Positions 3,264 through 63,289 of a stretch of 64,000 nt of DNA are shown here, one piece after another. The stretch lies in the IMG/VR virus record IMGVR_UViG_3300030108_000061; one strand, written 5' to 3'. The translations under genes and the position numbers were made by a program. The notes under the pieces are model-generated. The model was not told where the DNA came from. It did no database searches and saw only the letters and a list, made by a program, of their open reading frames with translations. Each line of letters begins with the position of its first letter. Position 1 is the stretch's first letter. Source of the stretch: an uncultured virus (IMG/VR IMGVR_UViG_3300030108_000061) (taxonomy: Duplodnaviria > Heunggongvirae > Uroviricota > Caudoviricetes).

Positions 3264-3266
3264 ATA

Positions 3267-5028: not shown

Positions 5029-5041
5029 AAGGAGTGACTAA

Positions 5042-11258: not shown

Positions 11259-11457
11259 TTTTTAGTTCCCGTCTTCCATTACGTATTTCCATTACATAAT
11301 TTGCAATCCTTTGTCTTGGCTCTAGCTCAGACTTTTTATTTTGATTTTTAGGTCTAGGGCCACGAGACAACAACCCCATAGTTGTATCGTCTTGTTTTTT
11401 AACTTTTGCTCTAGGCAAAGGTAAATTAGCATATGCTTTTAATGCTGTATTATACAT
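11251..11457 (-). CDS. Small basic hypothetical protein
   Basis: Homolog 63078..63278 (GLLSR, LEPRxRIAxYVMEIR). Confidence 0.7.
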   Translation of the reverse strand: MYNTALKAYANLPLPRAKVKKQDDTTMGLLSRGPRPKNQNKKSELEPRQRIANYVMEIRNGRRELKND

Positions 11458-11466
11458 ACTTTTCTC

Positions 11467-15236: not shown

Positions 15237-15438
15237 CTTCTCTCTATAATTCTATCTAGTTTTGCGTCTAGAGCCTCCAGNNNNNNNNNNTAGTCATATA
15301 GTCACGAGCCATTTCTTCTCGTGTTTTATTTAGTAGGACTTGCATACGTTGTGTTTCTGTGTGTTGGCTACGGATAACCCAACCTACTATACCAAGTAGG
15401 CCAGTTAGTCCAGCACTCCATAGCAACTCCATTTCCAT
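15233..15438 (-). CDS. Small membrane-anchored coiled-coil protein interrupted by the assembly gap (not in ORF track)
   Basis: MEMELLWSAGLTGLLGIVGWVIRSQHTETQRMQVLLNKTREEMARDYMT-[N gap]-LEALDAKLDRIIERR*. Confidence 0.6.
15281..15290. other. Scaffold gap (10 N); probable junction between two related phage genomes
   Basis: N run; the sequence to the right is gap-free to the window end and contains its own copies of the genes on the left. Confidence 0.9.
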
Positions 15439-30480: not shown

Positions 30481-32055
30481 TTAATATCCAAACACTGAAT
30501 CTGCAACTTGCATCCCTTGTGATGGTACGCCCATGGGATCATAATCAAATATACTAAATCGTGGTCTTGACATTATACCGTATCTTAGTGCATCGTACAA
30601 GTGATCTTCTGATGCGGTATCAATATCTTCAGGATTCTTTTTATCAATAGGCAAAGCTGGCAATTGAGATATTAGATTTGTACAAGTATTAAAAAATACT
30701 AATCTAGGTTCTTCTGTAAACTCATCCACCTGCAAACGTCTGTGTACTTCATTTTTTCCTGCAACTCTAGAGCCTTTTGATCTATCAGAGGGACGCCATC
30801 TACATCCTCTTATAATCATCTGTTCAGCAAGAGTAGGACCAGTATCGCCCCTACGATGCCACAAAGAAGAATCCAAAACTCCATATTTAATATTTCCATC
30901 TCCTGCCTCTAGATCTAGCACCATATCCGCTAAATCTGTAGCAAGAATTTTACTTACGTATAGTTCTCTGTAAACAACTAACTGCTCACTTGGAGATACT
31001 GCAAACCAAATCACCCCTGATTTACTACCATAACCATAGTCACAAGCTCTAAACTTTACCCAATTATTAGGTATATCATATGGCTCTACTACATGTATCT
31101 TTCTATCAAACTCTGTAAACGCTGCACCTTCTTTAATATCCCAATCACCGTCTAGTAACTGTCTACGTTGTTGTTCAGGCAACGATAGTAGCATTGCCTC
31201 ATAGTCACCTTGATTGGCTAGGTAAGGATTATCGGTAAGACGGGCAGGTATAAACCTACGCTTGAATAAAGGTTTGCCAGCTTTCGCATGTCCAGCAGGA
31301 TAACGTAAAACCTCACCCGTTTCAATATCCGTAGCATTAAAAGACTCTCCATGCGGTGCAGGATCAATAAACATTTTTTTGACCCAATGATGGCCCCGAC
31401 CTCCTGGGTTAGTAGTTGCCCTCATGTATACGGGCAGGTCGGGTGCAGTGGACCGTAGACGTGATCTCATGTAGTTCCACGAAAAGGGTGAAGGCCACTG
31501 AGTTAACTCGTCAAAGCCTATCCAGCTAAATGCTAGACCTTGGTATCGCAGGACGTCATCTTCCCTGTCTAGGTAGGACATCCACAATCTCGCACCAGAG
31601 GGCGCGGTCCACTGCATTTTTCGTTCAGACCACTTAATACCTTTCCAAATCTTAGGGTACATCTCCTGTGATTTAAATATAAGTTCTCTAAGTTCTTCTG
31701 TGGTATGACGTAAAAGTAACCCTGAAAAATCTGGATGTCCCATATATCGTAGAGGATCAGCTAACATTGCGTATGACTTACCACCACCAGCCGAACCACC
31801 ATATAATACTTCACGTTCACCTGCTGCAAGAAAGTCTGTCTGGGGGCCATCGTTAGGTTTAAAAACTACGTTGTGCTGTTCTTCTACAGGTATTTCAGTT
31901 AATATAGTGTTAGGCTGCGTCTGCGCTGTCCTCTTTCTTTTTACTGTCGATTCTTTTTTGTTCAAGGGCTTCCGCTTTGGCGATTGCCTTTTTCGCATAT
32001 TCTGCCCATCTGCGTAGGCTTCTAGCTTTGTTGTTCCTTGTTCGCTCATTATCAA
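30481..32055 (-). CDS. terL: Terminase large subunit (exact start uncertain)
   Basis: Walker A YGGSAGGGKS, Walker B IGFDE, ATTNPGG, nuclease-domain DYG and DHLYDALRY. Confidence 0.95.
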   Translation of the reverse strand: MIMSEQGTTKLEAYADGQNMRKRQSPKRKPLNKKESTVKRKRTAQTQPNTILTEIPVEEQHNVVFKPNDGPQTDFLAAGEREVLYGGSAGGGKSYAMLADPLRYMGHPDFSGLLLRHTTEELRELIFKSQEMYPKIWKGIKWSERKMQWTAPSGARLWMSYLDREDDVLRYQGLAFSWIGFDELTQWPSPFSWNYMRSRLRSTAPDLPVYMRATTNPGGRGHHWVKKMFIDPAPHGESFNATDIETGEVLRYPAGHAKAGKPLFKRRFIPARLTDNPYLANQGDYEAMLLSLPEQQRRQLLDGDWDIKEGAAFTEFDRKIHVVEPYDIPNNWVKFRACDYGYGSKSGVIWFAVSPSEQLVVYRELYVSKILATDLADMVLDLEAGDGNIKYGVLDSSLWHRRGDTGPTLAEQMIIRGCRWRPSDRSKGSRVAGKNEVHRRLQVDEFTEEPRLVFFNTCTNLISQLPALPIDKKNPEDIDTASEDHLYDALRYGIMSRPRFSIFDYDPMGVPSQGMQVADSVFGY

Positions 32056-32326
32056 GCCGCTTCCTTAATCCTACATGAGAAATATACCTACCTGTATTTT
32101 TAGATAGCCAGTTAGCAACTTCACGATATGAATATTGCTTTAAATATTTCTTAGCCTGTTGTAACTTATCTAGCTGGTCGGGTATAGGTGCTAGAACATC
32201 ATTATCTTCAGGGTGTAGTTCATAGCCAAACGGGACAGTTCGTGCGATGCGAGGGATTTCTATCCACTCATTGTCTTCTTGTATATCTGTTGGTTGAGGT
32301 AATTTCCAACGTCCTGTTTTAATCAA
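31910..32326 (-). CDS. Putative HTH DNA-binding protein in the packaging module
   Basis: RTVPFGY and YSYREVANWL...GRYISHVGLRKR. Confidence 0.6.
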   Translation of the reverse strand: MIKTGRWKLPQPTDIQEDNEWIEIPRIARTVPFGYELHPEDNDVLAPIPDQLDKLQQAKKYLKQYSYREVANWLSKNTGRYISHVGLRKRLDNERTRNNKARSLRRWAEYAKKAIAKAEALEQKRIDSKKKEDSADAA

Positions 32327-32691: not shown

Positions 32692-33143
32692 TACATCATC
32701 TCAAAATGTGGTGCATCAATAAAAGGTCTGCGTCCTTGTGATCTACGCAAGTCTATATAGTTATTCATTGCGTCCTCTGCAGTCCCTTGATACATTCTAA
32801 TATCACCCTCTGACCAAGCTGCACCCCACTTGATAGGAATTGATATACGTCTAGCTGCCTCTGCAAATGCATCACAGATATCATCATATACATTTAGTTC
32901 CCAAGAAATATCAGAACCAAAATATGCTACAACATCTACGGCTCTACCATCAAGATGTTTAGATTTCATAGTTTGTGATCTGCCAGAGTCAAATAGCTTT
33001 TGCTGCTCTTCTAGTGTACGTAAACCATAGGTCACACCAAAGTCTACCTTAGTTAACTTAATAGCTTCCATAACTACAGCTACAAGATCTTTCTCTACAC
33101 CTTCTAATTTACGAATACTTCTTGCACTTAATTTAAATGTCAT
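32691..33143 (-). CDS. Endolysin, peptidase M15 family
   Basis: GLRT..EQ, SKHLDGRAVD, WG and DAPHFE motifs. Confidence 0.9.
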   Translation of the reverse strand: MTFKLSARSIRKLEGVEKDLVAVVMEAIKLTKVDFGVTYGLRTLEEQQKLFDSGRSQTMKSKHLDGRAVDVVAYFGSDISWELNVYDDICDAFAEAARRISIPIKWGAAWSEGDIRMYQGTAEDAMNNYIDLRRSQGRRPFIDAPHFEMM

Positions 33144-33529
33144 TTATTTTTCCCAAAAAACTTAGTAGCTGATCTTACACCAAAACTAGCAGCCACAATA
33201 ACTCCAAGTGTGTATTGATACCACTCTGGCATAGACTCAAGTGCTACAAAACCATTAGCAACTATCTCTCTACCCCAATCTCCTGTAAACACAAGTACAA
33301 GAGGTATTGAAAATAAAATTGTCAGCCACTCGTCTTTCCACGAAGACTGACTTCCTTGTGCCATAATTTTTTCCCAATCAGCCTCAGATGTTGCGGCTGA
33401 CTTCATTATAGTTGCTTTTGCCTCTGCCTCTACAAGTTTAAGATTACTTGCCGCAGCTTGTACATCTGCTTTACCTTTTAACCAACCACCAGCTAGTTCT
33501 GCTATTGGTCCTATTAACGCTTGGATCAT
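33140..33529 (-). CDS. Holin (GTA-type 3TM-like)
   Basis: SWKDEW, MPEWYQY and ASFGVR motifs; TM segments; adjacent to the endolysin. Confidence 0.75.
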   Translation of the reverse strand: MIQALIGPIAELAGGWLKGKADVQAAASNLKLVEAEAKATIMKSAATSEADWEKIMAQGSQSSWKDEWLTILFSIPLVLVFTGDWGREIVANGFVALESMPEWYQYTLGVIVAASFGVRSATKFFGKNK

Positions 33530-33735
33530 AATGCTATTCCTTTTGATTCTTTAGCAAAAGACATTTCTACACACTTAGTAATTACAAAAGAGTCTGGAGT
33601 AGGTTTAGAAACTTCTAGTTTTTGTAATAATACTACCTCTGCAACTTCACACATCTCTTGATTTGGATATAATATTTGATCTGAAGCTACCTTGTGATCT
33701 CCACCTGCAAACATTAATAAAACAATTACATACAT
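33526..33735 (-). CDS. Small protein with hydrophobic N-terminus and two Cys
   Basis: Translationally coupled ORF in the lysis block. Confidence 0.55.
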   Translation of the reverse strand: MYVIVLLMFAGGDHKVASDQILYPNQEMCEVAEVVLLQKLEVSKPTPDSFVITKCVEMSFAKESKGIAL

Positions 33736-33950
33736 TATTTTGTACCTCTATCAGTCTTAGCTTCTTTATTCATCCAGATGCCAAAGCATCCTGTTAAAGC
33801 TCCCATACAAACAGATACAAGTCCTGCTTGTCCATTAGTAGGATCGGGTAAAGACATATACCAATGAACAGATTGATATGTTAATATAGTTACAACTAAC
33901 ATCATTAGTCTTGGAAATATTTTATAGTCATCTATTATTGTACTTGCCAT
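33735..33950 (-). CDS. Small two-TM membrane protein
   Basis: FPRLMM...WYMSLPDPT..QAGLVSV..GA.TG.FGIW. Confidence 0.7.
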   Translation of the reverse strand: MASTIIDDYKIFPRLMMLVVTILTYQSVHWYMSLPDPTNGQAGLVSVCMGALTGCFGIWMNKEAKTDRGTK

Positions 33951-33959
33951 ACTATTTTC

Positions 33960-34190
33960 CTATGCCACAACAAAGTCTACATTGCGTCCCTGTCTAGGAT
34001 ACATTTTGTTTCTATTGTGTGGATGATATGCATATGCATCCTCATACCTATATTTATCTGCTTTTTTATCCATGGCTGTTTTTGAAGCCTCAACTATTTC
34101 TTGTTTAGTTGTAGACTCTGTTGTTTTTGTTTTATTAAAAGGCATTTGTGGCAAAGGCAAATAATCTAATAAACCTGTACTTATATTCAC
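33960..34190 (-). CDS. Hypothetical protein
   Basis: ORF fits the operon spacing. Confidence 0.55.
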   Translation of the reverse strand: MNISTGLLDYLPLPQMPFNKTKTTESTTKQEIVEASKTAMDKKADKYRYEDAYAYHPHNRNKMYPRQGRNVDFVVA

Positions 34191-34193
34191 GGT

Positions 34194-34439
34194 TTAAGTC
34201 CTTCTAAATCTAGCAGTTTTCTTTGCGATCTTTTTAGGTTGAGCCACAAACTGCTTACCTGCCTTCGTGCCTTTTCGTTTGGCTCTTGAAGTAGCTGCAT
34301 ACTCAGCAGCACTGAGAGACTTAATAGCAGCAGTAGGGAGATAACGTTCTCCCGTTTTAGCGCTGGGCTTGCCACTCTTAGTTCTCCACTTTTGTTTAGT
34401 CCAATCCTTTAGACTTTTTTGAGATTTTTTTAGGGCCAT
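34194..34439 (-). CDS. Small basic protein (C-terminal half of DUF5872-like proteins)
   Basis: SQKSLKDWTKQKWRTKSGK....GERYLP..A. Confidence 0.7.
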   Translation of the reverse strand: MALKKSQKSLKDWTKQKWRTKSGKPSAKTGERYLPTAAIKSLSAAEYAATSRAKRKGTKAGKQFVAQPKKIAKKTARFRRT

Positions 34440-34514
34440 TTAACAACAGTCACACTCTGGATTACACTTACGATTAATTAAAGCACACCAAAGTCTTTTT
34501 AAATAACGCATCAT
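34440..34514 (-). CDS. 24-aa Cys-rich micro-ORF (not in ORF track)
   Basis: MMRYLKRLWCALINRKCNPECDCC*; start overlaps the upstream stop and stop abuts the downstream start. Confidence 0.55.
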   Translation of the reverse strand: MMRYLKRLWCALINRKCNPECDCC

Positions 34515-34693
34515 TATTTGTATCCCCCTCCTGCTTTTTTATAAGCAGAGGCCAGCATTTGAGCTTTTCTTGCCGACCACTGCCCAGGTTTACCGCCCTT
34601 GCTGCCAGCTTTTATTCTGGCAAATTGTCTTTTACGCATGGCTGGCTTAGTGTAGTTTCCAGCCTTGTTTACTGTAGATTTACTTTTAGCCAT
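34514..34693 (-). CDS. 59-aa basic protein, DUF5872-like (not in ORF track)
   Basis: NYTKPAMRK...KGGKPGQWSARKAQMLASAYKKAGGGYK. Confidence 0.75.
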   Translation of the reverse strand: MAKSKSTVNKAGNYTKPAMRKRQFARIKAGSKGGKPGQWSARKAQMLASAYKKAGGGYK

Positions 34694-35124
34694 TAAAACC
34701 TCTCGACATACTTAGCTATCTGCGAACAAAAAGGTAATAAAGCTATTGCCATCATTAAGTTTGCACCTGTATGTATTATAGCTATTCTTAGTGTATCGCC
34801 TTTTGGCATACCGTCACTAACGAAAAAACCTGCAAGCCAAATTGTTCCAGTTGTTCCTATGTTTGCTCCAAGCACTGCTGCTATTGCAGCAGGTAAAGGT
34901 AAAGCACCAGAAGCAACTAAAGCTATGATCGCAGTAGTGCTAAGAGAGCTAGACTGCCAAGCTAGGGTCATTGCTATCCCACCTATGAACATATAGATAG
35001 GGTTGCCTAGAAACCATTGCAAGTGTTCTATATTACCCATGTTTTTCATGCCACCACTAAATAATTTTAGTCCTACATAAAAAACAAATAAACCGCCTAA
35101 AGCTTGTATTGGTGGTGATAGCAT
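34693..35124 (-). CDS. Half-size Na+/phosphate cotransporter (NptA/SLC34 family, single repeat)
   Basis: QSSSLST and GANIGTT signature motifs in a hydrophobic 143-aa protein; RBS AGAGGA. Confidence 0.8.
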   Translation of the reverse strand: MLSPPIQALGGLFVFYVGLKLFSGGMKNMGNIEHLQWFLGNPIYMFIGGIAMTLAWQSSSLSTTAIIALVASGALPLPAAIAAVLGANIGTTGTIWLAGFFVSDGMPKGDTLRIAIIHTGANLMMAIALLPFCSQIAKYVERF

Positions 35125-35140
35125 TTCATTTATCCTCTAC

Positions 35141-35302
35141 TTAATATGGTTTCCAGCTTTGTTCACCGTAGATTTTCTGATAAATTTCGCAACGACTTAT
35201 CCCTATATCTTTTAATGCCCTATTTGACATATTTTGCAGTTGCCAATAAGCAACTCTATTTTCTTGTGATTTTTTTAAATAATTATATATTCTTTTTAGC
35301 AT
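35141..35302 (-). CDS. DUF1127 (YjiS-like) small protein, 53 aa (not in ORF track)
   Basis: ...QLQNMSNRALKDIGISRCEI... matches the L..MSD..L.DIG.SR.EI pattern; RBS AAGGAG. Confidence 0.8.
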   Translation of the reverse strand: MLKRIYNYLKKSQENRVAYWQLQNMSNRALKDIGISRCEIYQKIYGEQSWKPY

Positions 35303-35342
35303 TTCTATCTCCTTAATTTGTAAGCCTCAACTTACTAGAGAT

Positions 35343-35387
35343 AGTTATAACATATTTAGTTATAACATAAAATGCACAATGTTGCAA
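35343..35387 (-). promoter_or_regulatory. Promoter-like element with tandem GTTATAAC palindromes upstream of the DUF1127 gene
   Basis: TTGCAA-N17-TATAACTA; ATGTTATAACTA repeated twice with a 15-nt period. Confidence 0.5.
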
Positions 35388-35410
35388 CCCCGTTATGATA
35401 GGATTGCAAC
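35381..35410 (-). terminator. Hairpin after 35435..35950, possible terminator
   Basis: GUUGCAAUCC / GGGUUGCAAC stem on the minus strand; weak U-tail. Confidence 0.35.
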
Positions 35411-35434
35411 TGTTTTAAATTACTATGACCTCAT

Positions 35435-35950
35435 TTAGTCAAAGTTATGGGTTACAGTACCATCACCAAATAGATGTCCTGTTACCATCCAAATAGCATC
35501 AGTGATAGCCACGCAACTTACGTAACCACCAAGAAAACGTCCATCTGCATCTGAGTTTAAAATCAACTGATGGTCTGCGGCAGCAGGTACGTTAAAACCA
35601 TTTGTATCTACATTTTCATTAAGAGCAACTGCAGTACCTACATCATCTTTATCCATATGCAAAATTACACCTTGCATAGTATCTGCATCACTTGCAGCAG
35701 AAATAGTGTAGCTATTTGATGTGCCTGTTGTTCCAATATGAAAGTCATAATACAATCCTGCCTCTGCAGCAGGAAGTGTTACCACAATACCTGCAGCACG
35801 ATTCAGAGTAAAAATTGTGCCTGATTCTGCTGCTGTTACTGTTTTAGTTGCATCAGTAAGACTAGTTACTGTTCGTTTCATTGTTGTAAAAGAAATGTTT
35901 GGGTTTTGATAAACCTCAATACCTTCCTCTCGTGTTACTGATAGTGACAT
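35435..35950 (-). CDS. Putative virion decoration/fiber-like protein
   Basis: TKTVTAAESGTIFTL..AAGIVVTLPAA..GL.Y.F beta-rich pattern; RBS AAGGAGG. Confidence 0.55.
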   Translation of the reverse strand: MSLSVTREEGIEVYQNPNISFTTMKRTVTSLTDATKTVTAAESGTIFTLNRAAGIVVTLPAAEAGLYYDFHIGTTGTSNSYTISAASDADTMQGVILHMDKDDVGTAVALNENVDTNGFNVPAAADHQLILNSDADGRFLGGYVSCVAITDAIWMVTGHLFGDGTVTHNFD

Positions 35951-35964
35951 ATATTAAACCCTCC

Positions 35965-36165
35965 TTACACTTTCACCAGCTTATAGCCTTTGGCTTTAGC
36001 TGCTGCACGAATTTTTGCAAGTGTCATCATAGCAGAACCACCTTTTGCGTAACCCTTCTTCTTCATGCCGCCTCGTGCCATACCTTTCTTTTTCATACCA
36101 CCACGAGCCATACCTTTTTTCTTCATGCCTCCACGTGCCATGCCTTTCTTTTTATGCATTGCCAT
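35965..36165 (-). CDS. Small basic repeat protein (KKKGMARGGM)n
   Basis: Three MARGG units plus YAKGG; nucleotide repeats differ at synonymous positions; RBS AAGGAG. Confidence 0.8.
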   Translation of the reverse strand: MAMHKKKGMARGGMKKKGMARGGMKKKGMARGGMKKKGYAKGGSAMMTLAKIRAAAKAKGYKLVKV

Positions 36166-36167
36166 AG

Positions 36168-36851
36168 CTATTCATCTCCTTCGCTATATAAATTATTAAA
36201 CACTCGTTGCGTATCCCAAACGTAATTCACGTCTTCTTTCGAGTGAAATATATTTTGATTGGGCTTAAAATCAGGTGCGCCCTCTCCCATTTCAAACCAT
36301 GCAGGGTGAGTTACTCTCACTCTATTATTGGGTAACGCAACCATGTTACCAGTATATTCCCCTGCATCCAACAACTCAAGGACGTGAGATTGTTTATGTT
36401 GAGCAGGATCATCAGCTACTTCACTATCTGTGTAGTCTACAGTAAAATAATATTTAGCAGGATAGAACTCGTCATCTATCTTGGCAATCCAAGGTGCAGG
36501 AGTTGCACGATCTATTTTATAGACTGAATGCCAGTGGGACATACAGTCCCAAGGTTGCGCTAAATATGTAGGCAATGGCATAGGCCATTGTTCTAGTGGA
36601 GTATCTGCCACCAATGCTGTTAGTGGCATTCTAGCCCACATTGCACCGCCATGCACGTTAGGGCTATCTTCTTCATCGTCAGATTCACAACCTGTAAATA
36701 TGACCTGAAAACTTAATGTTCTGTTTGGCATTGTGGTGACTGCTACCACCATGCAATGTAAAAATTCACCATGATATTCCGACATATTCTTAGTATATTC
36801 ACGGCGTACCCATGCTTTGAAATAGGGTATGTTACTTTGTAGATACGGCAT
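36168..36851 (-). CDS. Conserved hypothetical phage protein (likely start ATG 36851)
   Basis: [32 protein letters not shown] and ALPNNRVR blocks. Confidence 0.7.
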   Translation of the reverse strand: MPYLQSNIPYFKAWVRREYTKNMSEYHGEFLHCMVVAVTTMPNRTLSFQVIFTGCESDDEEDSPNVHGGAMWARMPLTALVADTPLEQWPMPLPTYLAQPWDCMSHWHSVYKIDRATPAPWIAKIDDEFYPAKYYFTVDYTDSEVADDPAQHKQSHVLELLDAGEYTGNMVALPNNRVRVTHPAWFEMGEGAPDFKPNQNIFHSKEDVNYVWDTQRVFNNLYSEGDE

Positions 36852-37137
36852 TCTTTTTATGTTTCCTTCGCAAGTCTGATTTCCCTTGTTTAAAGACATT
36901 GGCTATGGCTGTCTTTCCCATAACTTTAGCACGTTGTTCACCAACTGTCAATATCTGAATCTTTCTTGCATAAGGTTTATTTATTCTTTTTACTTTTGCA
37001 ACTGTAGCTTTTGCATCTGCCATAGTTGCAAACTTAATAGGCACCGTATCTTTAGGGTTTTCGTCTGTATACAGCCTACGTCCAGACCCTTTAGGCTTTT
37101 TACCTGTTCCTACTTTTGGGTCTTTTCTTTTTGCCAT
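36832..37137 (-). CDS. Small basic hypothetical protein
   Basis: [32 protein letters not shown]. Confidence 0.7.
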
Positions 37138-37261
37138 TTTTATTTTTACCTGCAGTGGTTAAAGCTATAGCTACAGCTTGCTTTTGTGGTTTGCCCTCTT
37201 TACGTAACATACTTATATTAGAGCTTATAGTCTTATTACTTTTTCCTTTTTTTAGTGGCAT
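37100..37261 (-). CDS. 53-aa basic protein (not in ORF track)
   Basis: [34 protein letters not shown]..., a pattern common in phage late regions. Confidence 0.7.
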
Positions 37262-37263
37262 TA

Positions 37264-37599
37264 TTAACGTCTTCGTGCTTGAACTCTTTGTCCACCTCTT
37301 GCCCCTCTAAGCATAGCTCTCTGTAAAGCACCAGCCCTACGCCCAAAAGGACTTCTTCTTCTTGGTGTTGGTCTTCCACCACGACTTGCTACTGCACCTG
37401 ATACTCTACCTCTTTGAGCACTTGCTCTATTACCACCAGCAGCTGCCTGTGTTGCTGCTGCTCGCTGTAAAGCCCCTGTTTTTTGCTTATTTGCTGTTGC
37501 TCTAGCTGCTTTTCTTTGGCGTAATGCACCCAACCCAGCAATCTTTTTTCCTCGCATTGAACCTACTGCACGTTTAGTGCGACCTCTTCCTCCAAGCAT
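37264..37599 (-). CDS. Arg/Gly/Ala-rich protamine-like protein
   Basis: 111 aa with no D or E; GALQRA repeated; RBS AAGGAG. Confidence 0.7.
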
Positions 37600-37614
37600 A
37601 GTTTCTCTCCTTAA

Positions 37615-38070
37615 CTATTTATAAAACATGCCACCTTTACGCATGTCATTATTCCCAGACTTCATCATACCACCACGTTTCATGTAGCCCATTTTGTTAC
37701 GCACTGCAGTAGGTAGTTTCTTCAAGCCTTTTTGATCTGCTGTGGGTTTTTTTAATGCGCCACCAGCTTGCATCTCAAAAGGAGCTTTTGGCAAAGTAAC
37801 TTTATCTTTCATTTTTTTATCACGAGCTTTTTGCTGCATAGAGCGTCCAGCTTTAGTAGATTCTTCTGCCATTTCATTCTCAACATCTTTTAGTTGACGT
37901 TTCATATTCTTTAATTCAGTTTTTTCTTCTGCAGATAATTTATCTTTACCTTCTAACTTACGTATCTTAGTTTGTAATTTAACCTTTACACCTGCTAAAG
38001 ATTTAGCGGTCATTGTTGTACCTTTACCTGTAATACTAGATACAAGTTCTACTAAACTTTTCTTTCCCAT
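37615..38070 (-). CDS. Lys-rich protein with three MxxGG motifs
   Basis: MQAGG, MKRGG, MRKGG; RBS AAGGA. Confidence 0.7.
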   Translation of the reverse strand: MGKKSLVELVSSITGKGTTMTAKSLAGVKVKLQTKIRKLEGKDKLSAEEKTELKNMKRQLKDVENEMAEESTKAGRSMQQKARDKKMKDKVTLPKAPFEMQAGGALKKPTADQKGLKKLPTAVRNKMGYMKRGGMMKSGNNDMRKGGMFYK

Positions 38071-38089
38071 CAGTTTATTCCTTTATGGT

Positions 38090-38398
38090 TTAACATCTCC
38101 AACGCCTACGAGCCTGTCTCAACCTTGAGTTAGGATCTTTTGCAGCCTTGGGAAACTTTTTCATTTGTCCTGCTGATCTAGCACAAAAAGACTTACGTCT
38201 TTTAGCTCTAGATTTAGAAGGGTTCTTTTCGGTTACAGCAGTCTTAAGTTTAGATCCAGGGTTCTTACGTCTATACGCCCTAACACCTTTCTCTGTCATA
38301 CCTGCACCAGACTTTGTAGAACGTTTATGACCACCTTTAATGGTCAGTCCTTTCATGCCTGTGCCTTTACGTGACTTTTTCCCGCTCTTTGTCGCCAT
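38090..38398 (-). CDS. Basic protein, DUF6321-like
   Basis: NPGSKLK...RRKSFCARS.G......DPNSR...ARRRWRC. Confidence 0.7.
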   Translation of the reverse strand: MATKSGKKSRKGTGMKGLTIKGGHKRSTKSGAGMTEKGVRAYRRKNPGSKLKTAVTEKNPSKSRAKRRKSFCARSAGQMKKFPKAAKDPNSRLRQARRRWRC

Positions 38399-46833: not shown

Positions 46834-48057
46834 ATGGAATTATCACTTGTACGTAGTTTGATGGACAAAGAGTTCTACGATGAGCATCGTGGTGCTAGAT
46901 GTCCTGACAGACTATTCAGTAAAGATGTACGTAAGATCAAGCAGTCTATTGATACTGCTATGGATCGTTATGAACGTACCGTAACACCAGATGAGATTGA
47001 AGCCCTGTTCATGGCTAACAATCCCACACTTACCACTGCACAAAAACAAGCATACTCACACTTGTTTATGCAAGTTAAACGTGAGACACCTATGGGCGGT
47101 GACGTAGCACAAGAGGTGCTATCTAAACTATTCCAACAAGTGGTGGGAGAGGACATTGCAAACCTTGGGTTTGACTATGTAAATGGTGACAAGTCTAGTC
47201 TTGAGCCACTACGTAATTTGCTTGAGCAATATGGTGATGACTTCACTCCAAACCTAAAGGTTGAGTGGGAAGACATTAGTCTTGATACTATACTTGCAAT
47301 GACTGACCTTGAGTCACAGTGGACATTTAACATACCCACACTTACTCGCAAAGTAGAGGGTGTAAATGCAGGTCACTTGATTGAGGTGGGTGCAAGACCA
47401 AACACAGGCAAGACCTCATTCCATGCCTCTCTTGTTGCCAGTGAGGGTGGTTTTGCATGGCAAGGTGCTAAATGTATTGTGTTGTGTAATGAAGAGGCTC
47501 ATTGGCGTGTAGCCCATCGTTACATTACAGCAGCTACAAACATGGACAAGCACAAAGTCAGTAAAAATAAAGATGTAGCTATGCGTGTATTTGATCAGAT
47601 ACGTAGTAAAATTATGTTTAAAGATTCATCTGGACGTGACATGAATTGGGTAGAGTCTGTGTGTAAATCATACAAGCCAGACATTGTGATCCTAGACATG
47701 GGTGACAAGTTTGCTAGGACTAGTGGCTTTGCTAGACCTGATGAAGCACTCAAGGCTAATGCTGTACATGCTAGGCAGATTGCCAAGCAGCATAATTGTG
47801 CTATCTTTTACATGTCTCAGCTATCGGCTGATGCAGAGGGTAAGGTCGTACTAAACCAAGCCATGATGGAAGGTAGTCGTACAGGTAAGGCAGCAGAGGC
47901 AGATCTAATGATTATGATTAGCAAGAACCCTACGGTAGAGGGGCAAGAAGAAGAGGATAATATGAGACACATTAACATTGTTAAAAACAAGTTGTCTGGT
48001 TGGCATGGCATAGTGCACTGTGACCTAGACTATCACACTGCGAGGTACATCCCATGA
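46834..48057 (+). CDS. Replicative SF4 (DnaB/T7 gp4-like) helicase
   Basis: Walker A GARPNTGKTS, NEE, ILD, SQLS and KNK motifs. Confidence 0.92.
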   Translation: MELSLVRSLMDKEFYDEHRGARCPDRLFSKDVRKIKQSIDTAMDRYERTVTPDEIEALFMANNPTLTTAQKQAYSHLFMQVKRETPMGGDVAQEVLSKLFQQVVGEDIANLGFDYVNGDKSSLEPLRNLLEQYGDDFTPNLKVEWEDISLDTILAMTDLESQWTFNIPTLTRKVEGVNAGHLIEVGARPNTGKTSFHASLVASEGGFAWQGAKCIVLCNEEAHWRVAHRYITAATNMDKHKVSKNKDVAMRVFDQIRSKIMFKDSSGRDMNWVESVCKSYKPDIVILDMGDKFARTSGFARPDEALKANAVHARQIAKQHNCAIFYMSQLSADAEGKVVLNQAMMEGSRTGKAAEADLMIMISKNPTVEGQEEEDNMRHINIVKNKLSGWHGIVHCDLDYHTARYIP

Positions 48058-48470
48058 AAAAATATCTTGATAAAATGCCTGATTTTTGTCTTAGTCACTG
48101 GCTTTTAAGAATACCCTTGGCTATTGTATTCATACAACAAGGTCTGTCTAAGTTCCCGATTACTGCTGACGACGCTAGTGCTTTCGATTTACCTTACATT
48201 GTGTGGTGGTTTGCGGCATACGGAGAGTTAGGGGCAGGTATAGGACTACTAGTGGGTGGTCTAATATCTTTTACCTACCTACACTTAGACCACCCTTGGG
48301 TAGAAGATATAGTAACAAGGTTTAGTGGTATAGTTATATGCTGTATTATGACAGGTGTGATATGGGTGGGCGAACCTGATAGCCTGTTGGATGTGTTACT
48401 ATATGATAACTTACATGTGTTATTGTGGGTTGGTGGTTTGTTCTTTGCACTCAGAGGTAGACTAGCATGA
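48054..48470 (+). CDS. DoxX-family membrane protein
   Basis: LLRIPLAIVFIQQGLSKF...AYGELGAGIGLLVG...TRFSG; four TM segments. Confidence 0.7.
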   Translation: MKKYLDKMPDFCLSHWLLRIPLAIVFIQQGLSKFPITADDASAFDLPYIVWWFAAYGELGAGIGLLVGGLISFTYLHLDHPWVEDIVTRFSGIVICCIMTGVIWVGEPDSLLDVLLYDNLHVLLWVGGLFFALRGRLA

Positions 48471-49025: not shown

Positions 49026-49230
49026 AGAAGCAGCACAAATAGAAGCAGAAAAAACTTTCGACTTGTTTATTCTGTGGTCAAAGAGGGCTTTCATTTACAG
49101 CACTATATTTTTGATGGTGGTTGTATTTGGTTGTAATAATGGTGTTGAAACAGGGCCAGATAAGTCAGGCTCTCAGTATAACGGTGAAGCATACTCACCA
49201 ATGAACTTAAATGCAAAGGATAAAAAATGA
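49015..49230 (+). CDS. Small membrane protein / possible lipoprotein
   Basis: TM segment ending VVFGCN; RBS GGAGG. Confidence 0.55.
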   Translation: MTPREAAQIEAEKTFDLFILWSKRAFIYSTIFLMVVVFGCNNGVETGPDKSGSQYNGEAYSPMNLNAKDKK

Positions 49231-49580
49231 GTAACAAATTAAAGGTTGTACCTTTGAGCATTGTTAGTATCTTTGATTTATTCAAAGAGACATGGAACAG
49301 TGTGATGACAATACAGGATTCTCCGTTGCGTCACATTCAAAGACTAGACCCGATGGCTGCACATGCAGTATTTCAAATACTAGCTTACATGTGGAGTGCA
49401 ATCTTTGCACTATGGATAGGTAACATGTTCTGGTTTGCAATCAGTGGGATGGGCCACTCTTTGGTAATCGGTGGCATATTTATTACTGCAATGGTTTATA
49501 AGGAAGCTGAGAAAAACTCTAAGGTAGATCCCACCGACAATGTAACCAGTGGCAGAATGTTTGGTGGAGAGCACGATTGA
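49227..49580 (+). CDS. Conserved membrane protein
   Basis: WNSVM....SPL.HI......H...Q.LA.MW..IF pattern; two TM segments. Confidence 0.65.
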   Translation: MSNKLKVVPLSIVSIFDLFKETWNSVMTIQDSPLRHIQRLDPMAAHAVFQILAYMWSAIFALWIGNMFWFAISGMGHSLVIGGIFITAMVYKEAEKNSKVDPTDNVTSGRMFGGEHD

Positions 49581-49845: not shown

Positions 49846-51897
49846 ATGAAACACCTAACCCTCGACATAGAAAACACAGTTACCAAACGTAACGGCAAGT
49901 TACACCTTGATCCGTTCGAACCTGAGAATACATTGGTTATGGTGGGTATGCTAGATGATCTTGGCAACGAAGCTATTGTGACATTTGATCACGCAGAGCA
50001 TTCACCCACACAAAGGGGAGCACAGATAGTACAAGACCTACTTGACTGTGCTCCTCTTCTTATTATGCACAATGCCGCACACGATCTTGTATGGCTATGG
50101 GAATCTGGATTTACCTATGGCGGTCCTATCTTTGATACCATGCTAGGTGAATACGTATTGCAACGTGGACAGAAAGAACCTCTGTCTCTTGAGGCATGTG
50201 CAGAAAGATATGAACTTGCTACACAGAAGCAGGACACCATGAAAGAGTGGTTGAAAGCTGGTAAGCAGGTACGTGACATGCCTTATACAGAACTATCAGA
50301 TTACCTATCTGCTGACCTTGCAGCTACACAACAATTGTATTTGCGTTTAGTGACACAGTACGAGGAGTGCAGTGCATTGGAAGGAACGATACGCCTGACT
50401 AATCAGCTTGCTGTACATCTGTCACGTATATACCAACGTGGTTTTGCTGTTGATATGTCTGTGTTAGATCAGGTTAGGCAAGAGTTTACAAAAGAACGTG
50501 ACGATCTTGTGTCTAGTCTTGAGGCACAGGTGATTGATCTTATGGGGTTTAGGCCAATCAATCTTAACAGTCCAGAGCAATTGTCTTGGGTTATTTACAG
50601 TTGTAAACCTAATGATAAAAAGACATGGCCTGATATGTTTGATCAACGAATGGATAGACAAGATGTGCAACATCAGATACGCAACAACAGCACTAGGCTT
50701 TACAAACAAAAGGCAAAGCAATGCAATGTGTGCAAAGGTAATGGGAAAATACGAAAGGTAAGGAAAGATGGAACACCATACGCAAGACTTAATAATTGCA
50801 CTACGTGTAATTCCAGTGGCTTTCTTTTTCTGGATACTAATGAGATAGCTGGACTACGATTTGGTAGAACTATTGATAATCCTAAGTGGATTAGTGCCAA
50901 TGGGTTTAGCACCAGCAAAGACATCCTAGTGTACCTAGAGGGTATTGCACGTAGTAAAGGTAATACAAAGGCAGAGAAGTTTTTATCCAGTGTTCGTAGA
51001 CTGTCAGCAGTGGAAACCTACCTGTCCAGTTTTGTAGAGGGTATTGCAACCCACGTCAAGTCTGATGGTAAACTTCACGTAAGGTTGTTGCAACATCGCA
51101 CAGGCACAGGCAGACTTTCAGGCGCTGATCCTAATATGCAGAACATGCCACGTGGCGGTACGTTTCCTGTCAAACGTGTATTCAAGTCACGATGGAATGG
51201 CGGCAGTGTGATGGAAGCTGACTTTGCCCAGCTTGAGTTTCGGGTGGCTGCATTCTTATCACAGGACAAGACTGCCATTAATGAAGTGACCACAGGGTTC
51301 GATGTACACTCGTACACTGCCAAGGTTATCTCTGATGCAGGTCAACCTATTAGCAGACAGGAGGCAAAGTCCCATACTTTCGCCCCTTTATATGGGGCAA
51401 GTGGCTTTGGTAGAACAAAAGCAGAGGCTGCTTACTATCAACAGTTTACCACAAAGTATAGTGGTATCGCCAAGTGGCATGAGTCATTGGCAAATGAAGC
51501 ATTACGTACAGGCAAGATCACTACACCATCTGGACGTGAGTTTGCTTTCCCTGATGTAGAACGTAGACATTATGGGGGTGTGACATTTTTCACACAGATT
51601 AAAAATTATCCTGTGCAATCGTTTGCCACGGCTGACATTGTACCTATATCTCTGATATACATTGACAAGATGCTAGAGATAAACAAACTAAACAGCTGCA
51701 TAGTCAATACTGTACATGACAGTATTGTTATTGACGTGCATCCAAAAGAGAGGGAGAAAGTTCTTAAAATTATAAATCGTACTAATGAAGTGCTAACATC
51801 CTTGATTAACAAACGTTGGGACATTAATTTAAATGTGCCTCTATTATTAGAAGCAAAAATTGGTCCGAATTGGCTTGACACAAAGGACGTAGCCTGA
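49846..51897 (+). CDS. polA: DNA polymerase A with 3'-5' exonuclease and inserted DnaJ-type zinc finger
   Basis: DIE, HNAAHD, TGRLS..DPNMQN, ADFAQLEFRV, KSHTFAPLYG, NYPVQ and VHDS motifs; insertion CNVCKGNG...CTTCNSSG. Confidence 0.95.
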   Translation: MKHLTLDIENTVTKRNGKLHLDPFEPENTLVMVGMLDDLGNEAIVTFDHAEHSPTQRGAQIVQDLLDCAPLLIMHNAAHDLVWLWESGFTYGGPIFDTMLGEYVLQRGQKEPLSLEACAERYELATQKQDTMKEWLKAGKQVRDMPYTELSDYLSADLAATQQLYLRLVTQYEECSALEGTIRLTNQLAVHLSRIYQRGFAVDMSVLDQVRQEFTKERDDLVSSLEAQVIDLMGFRPINLNSPEQLSWVIYSCKPNDKKTWPDMFDQRMDRQDVQHQIRNNSTRLYKQKAKQCNVCKGNGKIRKVRKDGTPYARLNNCTTCNSSGFLFLDTNEIAGLRFGRTIDNPKWISANGFSTSKDILVYLEGIARSKGNTKAEKFLSSVRRLSAVETYLSSFVEGIATHVKSDGKLHVRLLQHRTGTGRLSGADPNMQNMPRGGTFPVKRVFKSRWNGGSVMEADFAQLEFRVAAFLSQDKTAINEVTTGFDVHSYTAKVISDAGQPISRQEAKSHTFAPLYGASGFGRTKAEAAYYQQFTTKYSGIAKWHESLANEALRTGKITTPSGREFAFPDVERRHYGGVTFFTQIKNYPVQSFATADIVPISLIYIDKMLEINKLNSCIVNTVHDSIVIDVHPKEREKVLKIINRTNEVLTSLINKRWDINLNVPLLLEAKIGPNWLDTKDVA

Positions 51898-51903
51898 TAT
51901 AAC
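51875..51903 (+). promoter_or_regulatory. Sigma70-like promoter (copy 2)
   Basis: TTGACA-N17-TATAACTATA. Confidence 0.75.
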
Positions 51904-51938
51904 TATACATCTGTAACAAAAGAAAAGGAGATACATAT

Positions 51939-52835
51939 ATGACTATGGTAGAAACATTTAATACGGCAGACTACAATTCAATGGCAGTTACACTTGGGAT
52001 GGCTGCGGATAACAAACCATCCCGTGATAGCTCCACTCTTGCACGTTTACGTATTAATCACTCGCCTATTATGGGTGAGCAAGAAGTAAATGGCAAGAAG
52101 GTAAAGCTAGAGGTTGTAGCTGGCGGCACATACAAGTTGGAGATTCCTGATGGCCCAACTTATTATGCCGAATCTGCTACTATACGTCCGTACATGCAAC
52201 GGTTTATGTACAAACGTTTTGTAATGGGCAACGACTCTGCCCCTAATCGTTATGTCAAAACTATCATGGCAGATAACCTTAACATTGATCTAAAGGACAA
52301 TGATGGCGGTTTTAACTGTGGTAAACCTGCTGGTTGGATTGAAGACTTCAAGGCTTTGCCTCAGAAGACACAAGACTTGATCAGGCAGATCAAACGTGTA
52401 CGTGTAATGTTTGGAACTGTTACACTAGACAATCCAGTAGACTTGAATGGCAATCCTGTCAATCAAGAACTAACGGATACGCCATTTATATGGGAGATTG
52501 AGAATCGTGATGCCTTCAAGATGGCTGGTGGTATCTTTACTAAACTTGCTAAGATGCGTAGGCTACCACCTATGCACACCATCAAATCAGGCACACAAGA
52601 ACGTAGCTTACCTAATGGTAACAGCTTTTTCCTGCCTGAGTTGGAGCTTGACATCACTAACTCGTTAGACTTAGATGCAGAGGCACAAGAAATACTTACG
52701 AACTTCTTGGCTTGGATCGCAAACTATAACGAGTATATATCTAACGCATGGGATGAAAACGTGAGTAAGCACGAGGACATTCCATTTGGTGATGTAGATG
52801 ATATCATTGACGCAGACATGGAAGAATTTGCATGA
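51939..52835 (+). CDS. Putative ssDNA-binding/annealing protein (copy 2)
   Basis: Homolog of 140..1036. Confidence 0.6.
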   Translation: MTMVETFNTADYNSMAVTLGMAADNKPSRDSSTLARLRINHSPIMGEQEVNGKKVKLEVVAGGTYKLEIPDGPTYYAESATIRPYMQRFMYKRFVMGNDSAPNRYVKTIMADNLNIDLKDNDGGFNCGKPAGWIEDFKALPQKTQDLIRQIKRVRVMFGTVTLDNPVDLNGNPVNQELTDTPFIWEIENRDAFKMAGGIFTKLAKMRRLPPMHTIKSGTQERSLPNGNSFFLPELELDITNSLDLDAEAQEILTNFLAWIANYNEYISNAWDENVSKHEDIPFGDVDDIIDADMEEFA

Positions 52836-53692
52836 TCAATCATCCAGCCGAACTAAAGATACATCAGTATCTGGAGAACGCAGCCAATGGTAAGTCAGAG
52901 ATGTCTGACGAAACCATTGACCGTGTTGCTTCTGACGTTGCTGATGCGTTAAAAAGACAGTTTGGCTCTGGCAACAAACGTGATGCCTTTAGACTGAGGA
53001 TGTCCAACATTGGGCGTCCCACTTGCCAGCTTTGGTTTGATAAAAATAAACCTGAAAAGGCATTACCTAAACCGACTACATTTGTAATGAACATGATGAT
53101 CGGAGACATAGTTGAAGCAGTCTTCAAGGGTATTCTTAAAGAGGCTGATGTGGCCTTTAAAGATACCAATAGAGTTAGCCTTGCAGTTGGAGACATTGAT
53201 AGTACTTATATTTCTGGTTCTTATGATCTCATTGTAGATGAAGCGGTGGATGACATTAAGTCTGCGTCTGACTATAGCTACAAACATAAGTTTGATTCGT
53301 ACGAGTCGTTAGAAGAGAGTGATCCGTTTGGTTATATAAGCCAACTTGCAGGTTACGCACGTGCAGCAGGTAAAAAACTTGGTGGTTGGTGGGTAATTAA
53401 CAAGGCAAGCGGTCAATTTAAATATGTAAAGGCAAAGACAGATGTTCCAAGCCAGATAAATAAGATAAGAGATACGGTTGAAACATTAATTAAAAATGAT
53501 TTCAGTCGGTGCTTTTCCCCTATACCCGAAAAGTTTCGGGGGAAAGCAACGGGCAACTATATACTTGACGATAGTTGTAAATTCTGCGACTATAGGTTTG
53601 AGTGTTGGCCTAGCTTAAAAGAGATACCATCACGTGTATCACAAGCTAAAGTGCCACCAATTGTGCAATACGTAGAAAGGAGTGATGAATGA
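52832..53692 (+). CDS. PD-(D/E)xK / Cas4-like exonuclease (copy 2)
   Basis: Homolog of 1033..1887. Confidence 0.75.
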   Translation: MINHPAELKIHQYLENAANGKSEMSDETIDRVASDVADALKRQFGSGNKRDAFRLRMSNIGRPTCQLWFDKNKPEKALPKPTTFVMNMMIGDIVEAVFKGILKEADVAFKDTNRVSLAVGDIDSTYISGSYDLIVDEAVDDIKSASDYSYKHKFDSYESLEESDPFGYISQLAGYARAAGKKLGGWWVINKASGQFKYVKAKTDVPSQINKIRDTVETLIKNDFSRCFSPIPEKFRGKATGNYILDDSCKFCDYRFECWPSLKEIPSRVSQAKVPPIVQYVERSDE

Positions 53693-53916
53693 TTGGAGAT
53701 GATGAAATTAAGGAAATGCAGGATCACATTGCTGAAATGGAACGAGAACTTGCAATCAAAAAGAAGGCCGTTAGAGAGGCAAAGTACGCAGGACTACGTG
53801 CAGCTATGCAAGCTCGTAAAGAGGCAGATGAAGCTGTTAGACAAGAGTTAAAGGACTTAGGAGTAACACAAACTACATCCTTTGGAATGCCGTTTGACTT
53901 TCACTGGAGGTTCTAG
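53689..53916 (+). CDS. Hypothetical coiled-coil protein (copy 2)
   Basis: Homolog of 1890..2114. Confidence 0.75.
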   Translation: MIGDDEIKEMQDHIAEMERELAIKKKAVREAKYAGLRAAMQARKEADEAVRQELKDLGVTQTTSFGMPFDFHWRF

Positions 53917-54368
53917 TGAATCATAAGCAGTTCAAAGCTGCTATGAAGCAGGGGTATAGGAGTGGTCTTGAGATAAAAATAAAAGACTTCCTAAGAGAAA
54001 ACAAGATACCCATCAAGTATGAATGCTTAAAGATTGAGTGGGAAGATTTGATGTATCGCACCTATACCCCTGATTTTATTCTGCCTAATGGCATCATTAT
54101 TGAGGTCAAAGGTAGATTTACTGCAAGTGACAGACGTAAACATGTGTGTATCAAGAAACAACATCCTAAGTTGGATATTCGTTTTGTATTTGAGAGTAGT
54201 AGGCGCAAGTTAAGTAAAGGCGCTAAGTCTACATATGCCACGTGGTGTGAGCGCAATAAGTTTACGTACTGTGATCGTGTAATTCCTATGGAATGGCTAA
54301 AAGAAAAGGGTAAAAATATGCACCCTGAGTTCATACAATTTCCATTGAAAAAAGTAAAGAGAGGTTAG
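53916..54368 (+). CDS. T7 endonuclease I-like resolvase (copy 2)
   Basis: YRSGLE, YTPDF and EVKGRF motifs. Confidence 0.9.
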   Translation: MNHKQFKAAMKQGYRSGLEIKIKDFLRENKIPIKYECLKIEWEDLMYRTYTPDFILPNGIIIEVKGRFTASDRRKHVCIKKQHPKLDIRFVFESSRRKLSKGAKSTYATWCERNKFTYCDRVIPMEWLKEKGKNMHPEFIQFPLKKVKRG

Positions 54369-54369
54369 C

Positions 54370-54690
54370 ATGGGTACAGTATTTCAACAATTTGATGACA
54401 ACGATATATTGATACGTCTATCTCCCTTTCTTGATGATTCAGGTGGATGGACAGGCGAACTACTCGTAGGTATAGCAAGCTCAGAGGATAATGATCTAAC
54501 AGATAATGATTATTTTCATATTATGCAACTGGGGTCTATGTTATGTGCAGCCGTTCCTCTAATGGAAGAGAGTGAAACATTTAGAAAAATGCTTTACGAG
54601 TATACACAAAAAGTGTTAGAAGAGGAGAAGAAACAAAAAAAGAAATCAGTAGTAGAGAAACACGACAACATAATCAAAGTAAATTTTTGA
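54370..54690 (+). CDS. Hypothetical protein (copy 2)
   Basis: Homolog of 2568..2888. Confidence 0.75.
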   Translation: MGTVFQQFDDNDILIRLSPFLDDSGGWTGELLVGIASSEDNDLTDNDYFHIMQLGSMLCAAVPLMEESETFRKMLYEYTQKVLEEEKKQKKKSVVEKHDNIIKVNF

Positions 54691-54944
54691 AAGGAGCACG
54701 AATGTCTGACAATGTAAACAATCCAAAACACTACAACCAAGCAGGTATTGAATGCATTGACGCCATTCGTGCCGCCACTGGTGACGGTTTTGAATACTAT
54801 CTACAAGGTAATATACTAAAGTATTTGTGGAGATATCGGTACAAAAATGGGGTAGAAGATCTCAATAAAGCACAATGGTATCTCAAACTATTGATTGAGG
54901 AAAAAGATGCGAGTAAAAATATTTCTGACAATAGAACTGGATGA
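54687..54944 (+). CDS. DUF3310 protein (copy 2)
   Basis: Homolog of 2885..3142. Confidence 0.85.
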   Translation: MKGARMSDNVNNPKHYNQAGIECIDAIRAATGDGFEYYLQGNILKYLWRYRYKNGVEDLNKAQWYLKLLIEEKDASKNISDNRTG

Positions 54945-55065
54945 AGAAGATTATCCAATACCCGTAGATGGTATGGTAGAAGAAGATGTGGATGAGACTA
55001 TACGCAATCTTATCCATGATGTAGACGGTATGTCTGTCAAGTCTGTAAAAATAATAGTGGAGTAA
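54907..55065 (+). CDS. Small acidic hypothetical protein (copy 2, not in ORF track)
   Basis: Homolog of 3105..3263. Confidence 0.75.
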   Translation: MRVKIFLTIELDEEDYPIPVDGMVEEDVDETIRNLIHDVDGMSVKSVKIIVE

Positions 55066-55068
55066 ATT

Positions 55069-56826: not shown

Positions 56827-56840
56827 AAAGGAGAACTAAC

Positions 56841-57038
56841 ATGACTAAACTAACTATTGACGAAACCGAATATGACATTGATGATTTTACAGATGAGCAA
56901 AAGGCTATCGTAAATCTAATACAGTACAACGACACTGTCGTGCGGCAACTAGAGCATGAGTTGCAGTGTGTATCTGCTGTTGGCAAAATGAAGGTAAACG
57001 AGTTGAAACAATCATTAGGCCATAAAGATGAGGAGTAA
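56841..57038 (+). CDS. Small hypothetical protein
   Basis: Distant homolog of 5042..5260. Confidence 0.7.
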   Translation: MTKLTIDETEYDIDDFTDEQKAIVNLIQYNDTVVRQLEHELQCVSAVGKMKVNELKQSLGHKDEE

Positions 57039-63085: not shown

Positions 63086-63278
63086 TCTTTAATTCCTGTC
63101 TTGCTTTTCGTATTTCCATAACATACTTTGCAATACGCTCTCTTGGTTCTAATTTATCATTAGTATTTTGCTGTGGCATACTAGGACTACGAGATAATAA
63201 TCCTGTGCTTTGCACTGGTTGTTTTTTCTGTTTAGGCATTTGTAAATTTTTATATGCTTTAAAACCTGCGTTATACAT
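63078..63278 (-). CDS. Small basic hypothetical protein (copy 2)
   Basis: Homolog of 11251..11457. Confidence 0.7.
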   Translation of the reverse strand: MYNAGFKAYKNLQMPKQKKQPVQSTGLLSRSPSMPQQNTNDKLEPRERIAKYVMEIRKARQELKNG

Positions 63279-63289
63279 TCTTATACCTC

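Follow-up and report, generated by a model that had tools for sequence, protein, structure and literature searches.

Transporters of the SLC34/NptA family combine two inverted repeats, each with a QSSS motif, in one polypeptide. The locus described here raises the question of what a phage-encoded protein of 143 aa, with only one such repeat, could do. The gene lies within a 64,000-nt stretch of DNA from an uncultured virus (IMG/VR record IMGVR_UViG_3300030108_000061), which we call the window. A preliminary description, made by reading this DNA alone, had recognised a minimal single-repeat Na+/phosphate cotransporter with intact translation signals and coupling to the next gene, had proposed that it acts as a possibly dual-topology homodimer or else modulates the host transporter, and had set it apart from the usual phage phosphate genes pstS and phoH; as checks it named a search with the Na_Pi_cotrans profile, an AlphaFold homodimer prediction and dN/dS among phage homologues. 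Our preferred reading, held with moderate confidence, is that the product is a functional half-size SLC34/NptA member, which would work as an antiparallel homodimeric Na+/phosphate carrier.

The gene and its single repeat

The single QSSS, the single GANIGTT, the ribosome-binding site, the start and the stop were all read directly in the 143-aa ORF, as initially described, and the local organisation is the following:

34693..35124, minus strand: half-size transporter gene, an ORF of 143 aa with an ATG start (432 bases)
34945..34956, minus strand: QSSS, residues 57-60, at the predicted hairpin tip (sequence reading and alignment to 9z60_A)
34849..34869, minus strand: GANIGTT, residues 86-92, in predicted TM2 (sequence reading and alignment to 9z60_A)
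34759..34773, minus strand: H118-T119-G-A-N122, in predicted TM3 (alignment to 9z60_A)
35133..35137, minus strand: GAGGA ribosome-binding site, 8 nt 5' of the ATG (sequence reading)
34691..34695, minus strand: TAATG, the overlap of the transporter-gene stop with the start of the next ORF, one base being common to both (sequence reading)
34514..34693, minus strand: downstream ORF, 59 aa, basic, phrog_17747, its start overlapping the transporter-gene stop
35141..35302, minus strand: upstream neighbour, a 53-aa DUF1127 protein (Pfam PF06568, E 8.1e-9)

The TAATG overlap bears out the coupling to the next gene. On the 5' side the DUF1127 gene is separated from the transporter gene by a gap of 16 nt on the shared strand, and a DUF1127 homologue precedes the transporter gene only in its closest relatives (L001-L004 and L081, the last being the L001 record). 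A scan for consensus promoters and terminators found no minus-strand promoter-like site near the transporter gene, the counts being no higher than in shuffles. Among four metatranscriptome runs compared, contigs of one (X16) span 34708-35125 at 95-99% likeness and those of the other three span only the neighbours of the transporter gene, contig coverage alone not being equivalent to transcription.

The protein matches the Pfam family PF02690 (Na_Pi_cotrans) above the gathering cutoff (60.8 bits against 29.1; E 1.8e-16), and does so as a single match in one stretch, residues 15-121 lying on positions 2-104 of 137 in the profile. In a phmmer search of the PDB it aligns to both repeats of the SLC34A2a chain 9z60_A (82-214 and 390-477; whole-sequence E 1.1e-17). 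The product of 34693..35124 is thus a single-repeat SLC34/NptA-family protein, as had been proposed, and the architecture of the full family, with two inverted repeats and a QSSS in each, is reduced to one Pfam stretch and one QSSS. As would be expected of half a protein, it scores below the whole-protein cutoffs of the NCBIfam models TIGR00704 (NaPi_cotrn_rel, 50.6 against 210.1) and NF037997 (Na/Pi symporter, 41.5 against 50); PHROGs hold no family for it (best E 0.021). The window contains no further copy: below E 0.3 tblastn gives only the self-match, and a six-frame HMM search gives a single match. Extended to 86 loci, over ~6 kb around the gene, the six-frame search again returned one match per source (87 sources in all), so that the gene is a singleton in the manner of dual-topology proteins.

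The halved length and the scores under the full-length cutoffs could also be those of a captured two-repeat transporter gene that has been cut short and has lost its function. Such an origin we regard as extremely improbable. The frame is intact, with QSSS and GAN[ILV]GTT kept, in all 80 of the viral loci fetched; length is held at about 143-150 aa across homologues; the gene has its own ribosome site and is translationally coupled; and the short proteins, in a tree of repeat units based on 103 rows and 98 columns and poorly resolved, form one cluster (SH-aLRT 88) outside both the repeat-1 and the repeat-2 clades, nested in neither. Decay is further contradicted by dN/dS, estimated by the Nei-Gojobori method from 56 unique coding sequences after leaving out the saturated pairs (968 of 1540), with medians of 0.052 for dS 0.02-0.3 (n=33), 0.066 for dS 0.3-1 (n=42) and 0.081 for dS 1-3 (n=468), that is, about 0.05-0.08. 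The half-size gene is under strong purifying selection, and the preliminary description was right not to treat it as a pseudogene.

Binding-site residues and the predicted dimer

The reference for any functional reading is human SLC34A2, for which the available part of a recent preprint (bioRxiv 10.64898/2026.05.25.727688) describes both the repeat unit, ordered TM1-hairpin-TM2-TM3, and the ligand sites. Phosphate is bound there by the two QSSS motifs together with T192 and T465; Na2 and Na4 each combine the hairpin Ser/Thr of one repeat with the TM2/TM5 Thr and H220/H491 of the other; Na3 is formed by N189, N224, N462 and N495; and Na1, which is asymmetric and present in repeat 1 only, by S193, N196, T197, A217 and D221. 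The functional unit, according to the same part of the preprint, is the monomer, with both repeats in one chain.

The phage protein, as modelled by AlphaFold2 from a 49-sequence alignment (mean pLDDT 88.9), has helices at 4-27, 33-39, 42-56, 59-71, 77-102 and 109-141, and its predicted fold is of the same order: TM1 (the gate helix), a re-entrant hairpin with QSSS at its tip, TM2 and TM3. A Foldseek search of the PDB (library to 2026-04-08) returned nothing at E<=0.001 and no SLC34A2 chain among its matches; similarly, the highest Z among 48,161 chains compared by VIA-align was 6.5, under the noise level for helical proteins, with VcINDY (Z 6.0), ArsB (5.9) and Pho90 (5.5) among the matches and none standing out.

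It is the alignment to 9z60_A that places the individual residues. The QSSS at 57-60 matches the phosphate-binding QSSS at 158-161 and 431-434 of human SLC34A2; N88 corresponds to N189/N462 of the Na3 site, T91 to T192/T465 (phosphate and Na2/Na4), T92 to S193/T466, T94, just beyond GANIGTT, to T195/T468, H118 to H220/H491 and N122 to N224/N495. QSSS (Q57, S58, S59, S60) is invariant in 49 of 49 aligned sequences, as are T63, N88, T91, T92, H118 and N122, with T94 nearly so; G86, A87 and G90 of GANIGTT are likewise invariant in the family alignment. Judged from these correspondences, the residues of the symmetric phosphate, Na2/Na4 and Na3 sites of SLC34A2 are all kept, invariant or nearly so. 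The Na1 site is lacking: its phage equivalents are T92, I95, W96, A115 and T119, of which I95, W96 and T119 replace N196, T197 and D221. Position 119 is D in 39 of 95 repeat-1 rows (48 being gapped), and the commonest residues of repeat 2 there are L, V, T and F. The phage protein therefore has in common with SLC34 (NaPi-II)/NptA transporters, as represented by the solved SLC34A2 (PDB 9z60 series), the Pfam domain, the TM1-hairpin-TM2-TM3 order and the conserved QSSS, N-I-G-T-T and H...N residues; it differs in consisting of one repeat in 143 aa rather than two in one chain, and in having no extracellular domain, linker or accessory TM7-8.

With one inverted-repeat unit instead of two, a single chain would supply half of the phosphate and sodium sites, and half a site cannot bind phosphate canonically. 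We infer the dimer, its dual topology, the substrate and the direction of transport along the following lines. The protein would insert in both orientations and then form an antiparallel homodimer, in the core of which phosphate would be held between two QSSS hairpin tips, with two flanking Na sites and a Na site of four asparagines; such a dimer would be without the asymmetric Na1 site and without the accessory and extracellular domains of the animal SLC34 proteins. In an infected marine cell the seawater Na+ gradient would drive phosphate import for phage DNA synthesis.

Structure prediction is consistent with this arrangement. Two copies of the protein gave an ipSAE of 0.61, the highest value among three controls being 0.00, and in this respect the homodimer check passed. 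Of proteins with solved structures, 20 of 30 homo-pairs and 1 of 23 single chains attain the pass mark; this calibration is only roughly valid here because a custom alignment was used, and the score is the model's own confidence and may reflect learned inverted-repeat folds or likeness to known folds. At least 88% of the contacts were common to the three homodimer runs, the pLDDT of the partner being at least 74. The predicted interface (57-60, 63-64, 88, 91-92, 94-95, 118 and 121-122) comprises the hairpin tip, TM2 and TM3, site residues included. Since the predicted contacts include self-contacts in mid-helix (88-88, 125-125) and contacts between opposite helix ends (77 to 110-114, 80 to 114), only an antiparallel pair fits them; they imply, as far as the model goes, a pair with an in-plane two-fold axis that would mimic the pseudo-symmetry of SLC34.

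The distribution of positive charge is less straightforward. The K+R bias, taken as the Y side, which carries loop 1 and the C-tail, minus the X side, with loops from the predicted model, amounts to +2 in 137 of the 191 family members, the mean being 1.38; for the same regions of two-repeat proteins the means are -1.36 in repeat 1 (n=45) and +2.38 in repeat 2 (n=72). A bias of +2 therefore puts the charge pattern nearer to a fixed, repeat-2-like orientation than to a balanced dual topology. Of the mechanisms considered, the homodimer with possible dual topology of the preliminary description has the strongest support, all of it computational: the invariant symmetric-site residues, the singleton gene and the homodimer prediction favour it, and the charge bias is unlike that of a perfectly balanced protein.

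This resemblance to repeat 2 of full-length proteins can be turned into another explanation, namely that the protein is fixed in one orientation, is no canonical transporter alone, and acts by binding or disturbing a membrane protein of the host, such as the host Na/Pi carrier, or makes use of a host partner. An option of this kind had been put forward earlier as modulation of the host transporter, for which we found no positive evidence, and we consider it quite improbable. The functional unit of SLC34A2 being a two-repeat monomer in the available part of the preprint, a third repeat would have no evident site at which to dock. The gene occurs in lineages whose relatives infect different hosts, and this speaks for a protein that works by itself; a half-size partner was not seen in cellular genomes, scanned with patterns from the phage family; and a mere binder would not need invariance of all the four-fold site residues.

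For the antiparallel homodimer, which we continue to prefer, parallels exist in other families. EmrE/SMR and Fluc/CrcB proteins are dual-topology homodimeric membrane proteins. The phage protein resembles them in having a small singleton gene that encodes half of an inverted-repeat architecture and in its predicted antiparallel pairing; it differs in fold and family, in a K+R bias of +2 where theirs is near zero, and in that its dual insertion is putative. No publication on half-size or dual-topology forms in the Na_Pi_cotrans/NaPi-II group emerged from literature searches, and a review of NaPi-II modelling contained no passage on duplication, ancestry or homodimers.

Should the homodimer model be true, no smaller member of the SLC34 family would be known, and the protein would be a tractable symmetric model for a medically relevant group of transporters whose first structures are only now appearing; a hairpin-type carrier would join the short list of natural dual-topology proteins, and the duplication-and-fusion route to inverted-repeat transporters would become directly testable. 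A more far-reaching version holds that the 143-aa protein is a natural dual-topology half-transporter, so far met almost exclusively on phage or phage-like contigs and spreading among unrelated marine phages as a small cassette, and that its antiparallel homodimer is a minimal Na+/phosphate carrier with a fully symmetric site; it would then be a living example of the supposed homodimer stage ancestral to SLC34-like inverted-repeat hairpin transporters. To this version we give tentative credence, a little short of an even chance.

Distribution among phages and cellular genomes

At E<=1e-3 the homologous proteins form 4188 clusters, with lengths of 78-251 aa; the best 120 of the 4188 have 135-166 aa at 77-92% identity, and for several the source indicates a complete protein. 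The nearest clusters of a protein atlas are named 'putative Na/Pi cotransporter', have 147-160 aa and are 100% Viruses. A scan of viral contigs yielded 522 confirmed loci which, with phage hallmark genes flanking, give the gene the character of an auxiliary metabolic gene, its metabolic role being taken from the family. The nearest record (G001) contains an identical copy of the transporter gene, and 50,697 phage records, a set from which near-identical entries may be missing, gave no match to the protein (tblastn) or to 33000-37000 (megablast).

The window itself encodes a TerL that is 84-88% identical to those of Roseobacter phages CRP-345 and CRP-1 and of Puniceispirillum phage HMO-2011, and it therefore represents an HMO-2011-type podophage. 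The terminase/portal neighbours of the window recur in 6 of 80 viral loci, and the same endolysin in 3 more. In about a dozen further HMO-2011-type loci the gene is found in the replication module, between primase/helicase genes and DNA polymerase. Outside this group, one locus is T4-like (L048, with a major head protein, a tail tube and UvsY, its capsid protein sharing 58-60% identity with its counterparts in marine T4-like phages), and another is DSS3_VP1-like (L029, with a TerL 67% identical to that of DSS3_VP1). The gene is thus present in at least three phage lineages (HMO-2011-type, T4-like and DSS3_VP1-like), and at different genomic positions. Genes of nucleotide supply often adjoin it, including ThyX (L010, L020), RNR (L029, L054, L061), PRPP synthetase (L036) and a GMP-reductase-like gene (L083). 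Across these differing contexts the protein is 75-90% identical, as expected of a mobile, self-sufficient gene, and the half-size gene behaves as a mobile metabolic gene among unrelated marine phages.

These positions also bear on whether the protein imports phosphate at all, or instead has a membrane-active role such as the timing of lysis, depolarisation, leak or export of phosphate or sodium, or superinfection exclusion. In the window the gene sits in a late minus-strand operon, ~1.2 kb upstream of the lysis genes and upstream of small membrane proteins, endolysin and terminase genes; CRP-345, a cultured relative with a gene order as in the window, has only small hypothetical genes at the position of the transporter gene; and the sequence does not reveal the direction of transport. 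A membrane-active role is nevertheless unlikely in our view, since other phages carry the gene in replication and nucleotide-metabolism modules, away from lysis genes, and since the phosphate- and Na-coordinating residues are strictly kept, which points to the binding of a specific substrate and not to a generic pore.

The classical phage phosphate genes pstS, phoH and phoA encode a periplasmic binding protein, an ATPase-like protein and a phosphatase. The half-size gene is likewise carried by phages and would be tied to phosphate supply in the P-poor surface ocean; it would differ from them as a complete secondary carrier made from one small gene. The contrast with pstS and phoH drawn in the preliminary description is fair, with the qualification that the gene family is already known as a metabolic gene of HMO-2011-type phages: the available part of PMC9038755 (ISME J 2022) lists PF02690 among the genes of eight HMO-2011-type genomes of subgroup I, with phosphate uptake during infection as its proposed role. 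The Pfam family, the phage group and the proposed role are shared with the gene described here; that part of the paper treats it as an ordinary cotransporter and makes no mention of its half size, of dimerisation or of a spread beyond HMO-2011-type phages. If the homodimer model is true, many abundant marine phages of several lineages would bring their own phosphate carrier in 432 bases, by a route to phosphate distinct from the known pstS route, and the abundance of the gene could be measured along phosphate gradients.

A further gene is associated with the transporter gene in some of these phages. It encodes a protein of 105-117 aa ending in GEHD, with hydrophobic stretches and, by eye, the appearance of a two-helix membrane protein; it matched no Pfam family, and its copies at L020:6502-6819 and L029:6420-6737 are ~72% identical. 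A homologue in the window (49227-49580, plus strand; 32-38% identical) lies far off in the replication module. The GEHD gene directly follows the transporter gene on its 3' side in just 13 of the 81 loci with room for it, HMO-2011-type and DSS3_VP1-like phages included; a general, fixed partnership of the two proteins was accordingly rejected, and the adjacency, together with the identity of ~72% across phage types, suggests that the two genes travel together in a subset.

An exhaustive HMMER search of representatives found no two-repeat protein above 43% identity, those listed being at 32-43%, and a few complete-looking half-size proteins at 39-48% (P0171, P0215, P0249). A scan of one genome per species, covering 185,579 species, relied on patterns taken from the phage proteins, so that distant cellular half-size forms could escape it; all 36 of its matching open frames in L087-L122 have at least two repeat domains (28-49% identity), and single-repeat matches numbered only 5, at 63-75% identity and all on contigs of marine MAGs from unrelated phyla, two labelled Flavobacteriales and one each Chloroflexota, Nitrososphaerales and Verrucomicrobiales. 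The half-size form is so far found essentially only on phage or phage-like contigs. On the contig of the MAG labelled Chloroflexota (L083, 28 kb), the half-transporter gene directly follows a GMP-reductase/IMPDH-family gene, with an isocitrate-lyase-family gene and a solute-binding protein in the vicinity; this contig may be viral or cellular.

Compared with 95 two-repeat proteins, the phage protein is 37.1% identical to repeat 1 and 34.2% to repeat 2, is nearer to repeat 1 in 69 of the 95, and combines features of both. In the repeat-unit tree the clade of short proteins stands in an unresolved fork with the repeats of a longer bacterial group, some members of which have been proposed as exporters. 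The two-repeat proteins there form two groups (weak support), and within each group repeat 1 and repeat 2 have separate clades, the two repeats of one group pairing together and not with the matching repeats of the other; this pattern hints at separate duplications or at concerted evolution.

Other features of the window

The minus-strand surroundings of the gene encode portal, TerL, TerS, an M15-type endolysin, small membrane proteins and many small basic proteins. A run of the last, very basic in composition, occupies 35965-36165 and 36832-38398 (both minus strand), and includes a 66-aa protein with three tandem KKKGMARGGM units, an Arg/Ala/Gly-rich 111-aa protein and a DUF6321 protein; these may be internal virion or DNA-binding proteins. 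The TerL ORF (30481-32055, minus strand) has TTG as its mechanical start and overlaps a 138-aa ORF at 31910-32326; the annotated TerL of CRP-345 is shorter (1329 nt), so that the true start in the window is probably an internal ATG. In the replication module, 48054-48470 (plus strand) encodes a small membrane protein of the DoxX family (Pfam E 8.3e-9).

The first and last 12 kb of the window are alike at only 88% and 73% (9-5106 against 51808-56905, and 10565-12166 against 62368-63998), with slight differences in ORF sizes, and runs of N occur at 4438-4447 and 15281-15290. From this low identity it follows that the window covers two related HMO-2011-type variants over more than one genome length, and it may be a concatemer, scaffolded or chimeric, instead of a sequence with a terminal repeat.

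Finally, the intergenic region 5' of the DUF1127 gene (35303-35434) contains two direct copies of AGTTATAACATA (35343-35354 and 35358-35369) as well as two of TTGCAAC (35382-35388 and 35404-35410), and the direct copies may constitute a regulatory site. In the contigs of one metatranscriptome run, 35126-35454 (329 letters, comprising the DUF1127 gene and the spacer) is replaced by 335 different letters, across which a near-identical variant of the transporter gene joins the next upstream gene; 35126-35454 is a variable spot.
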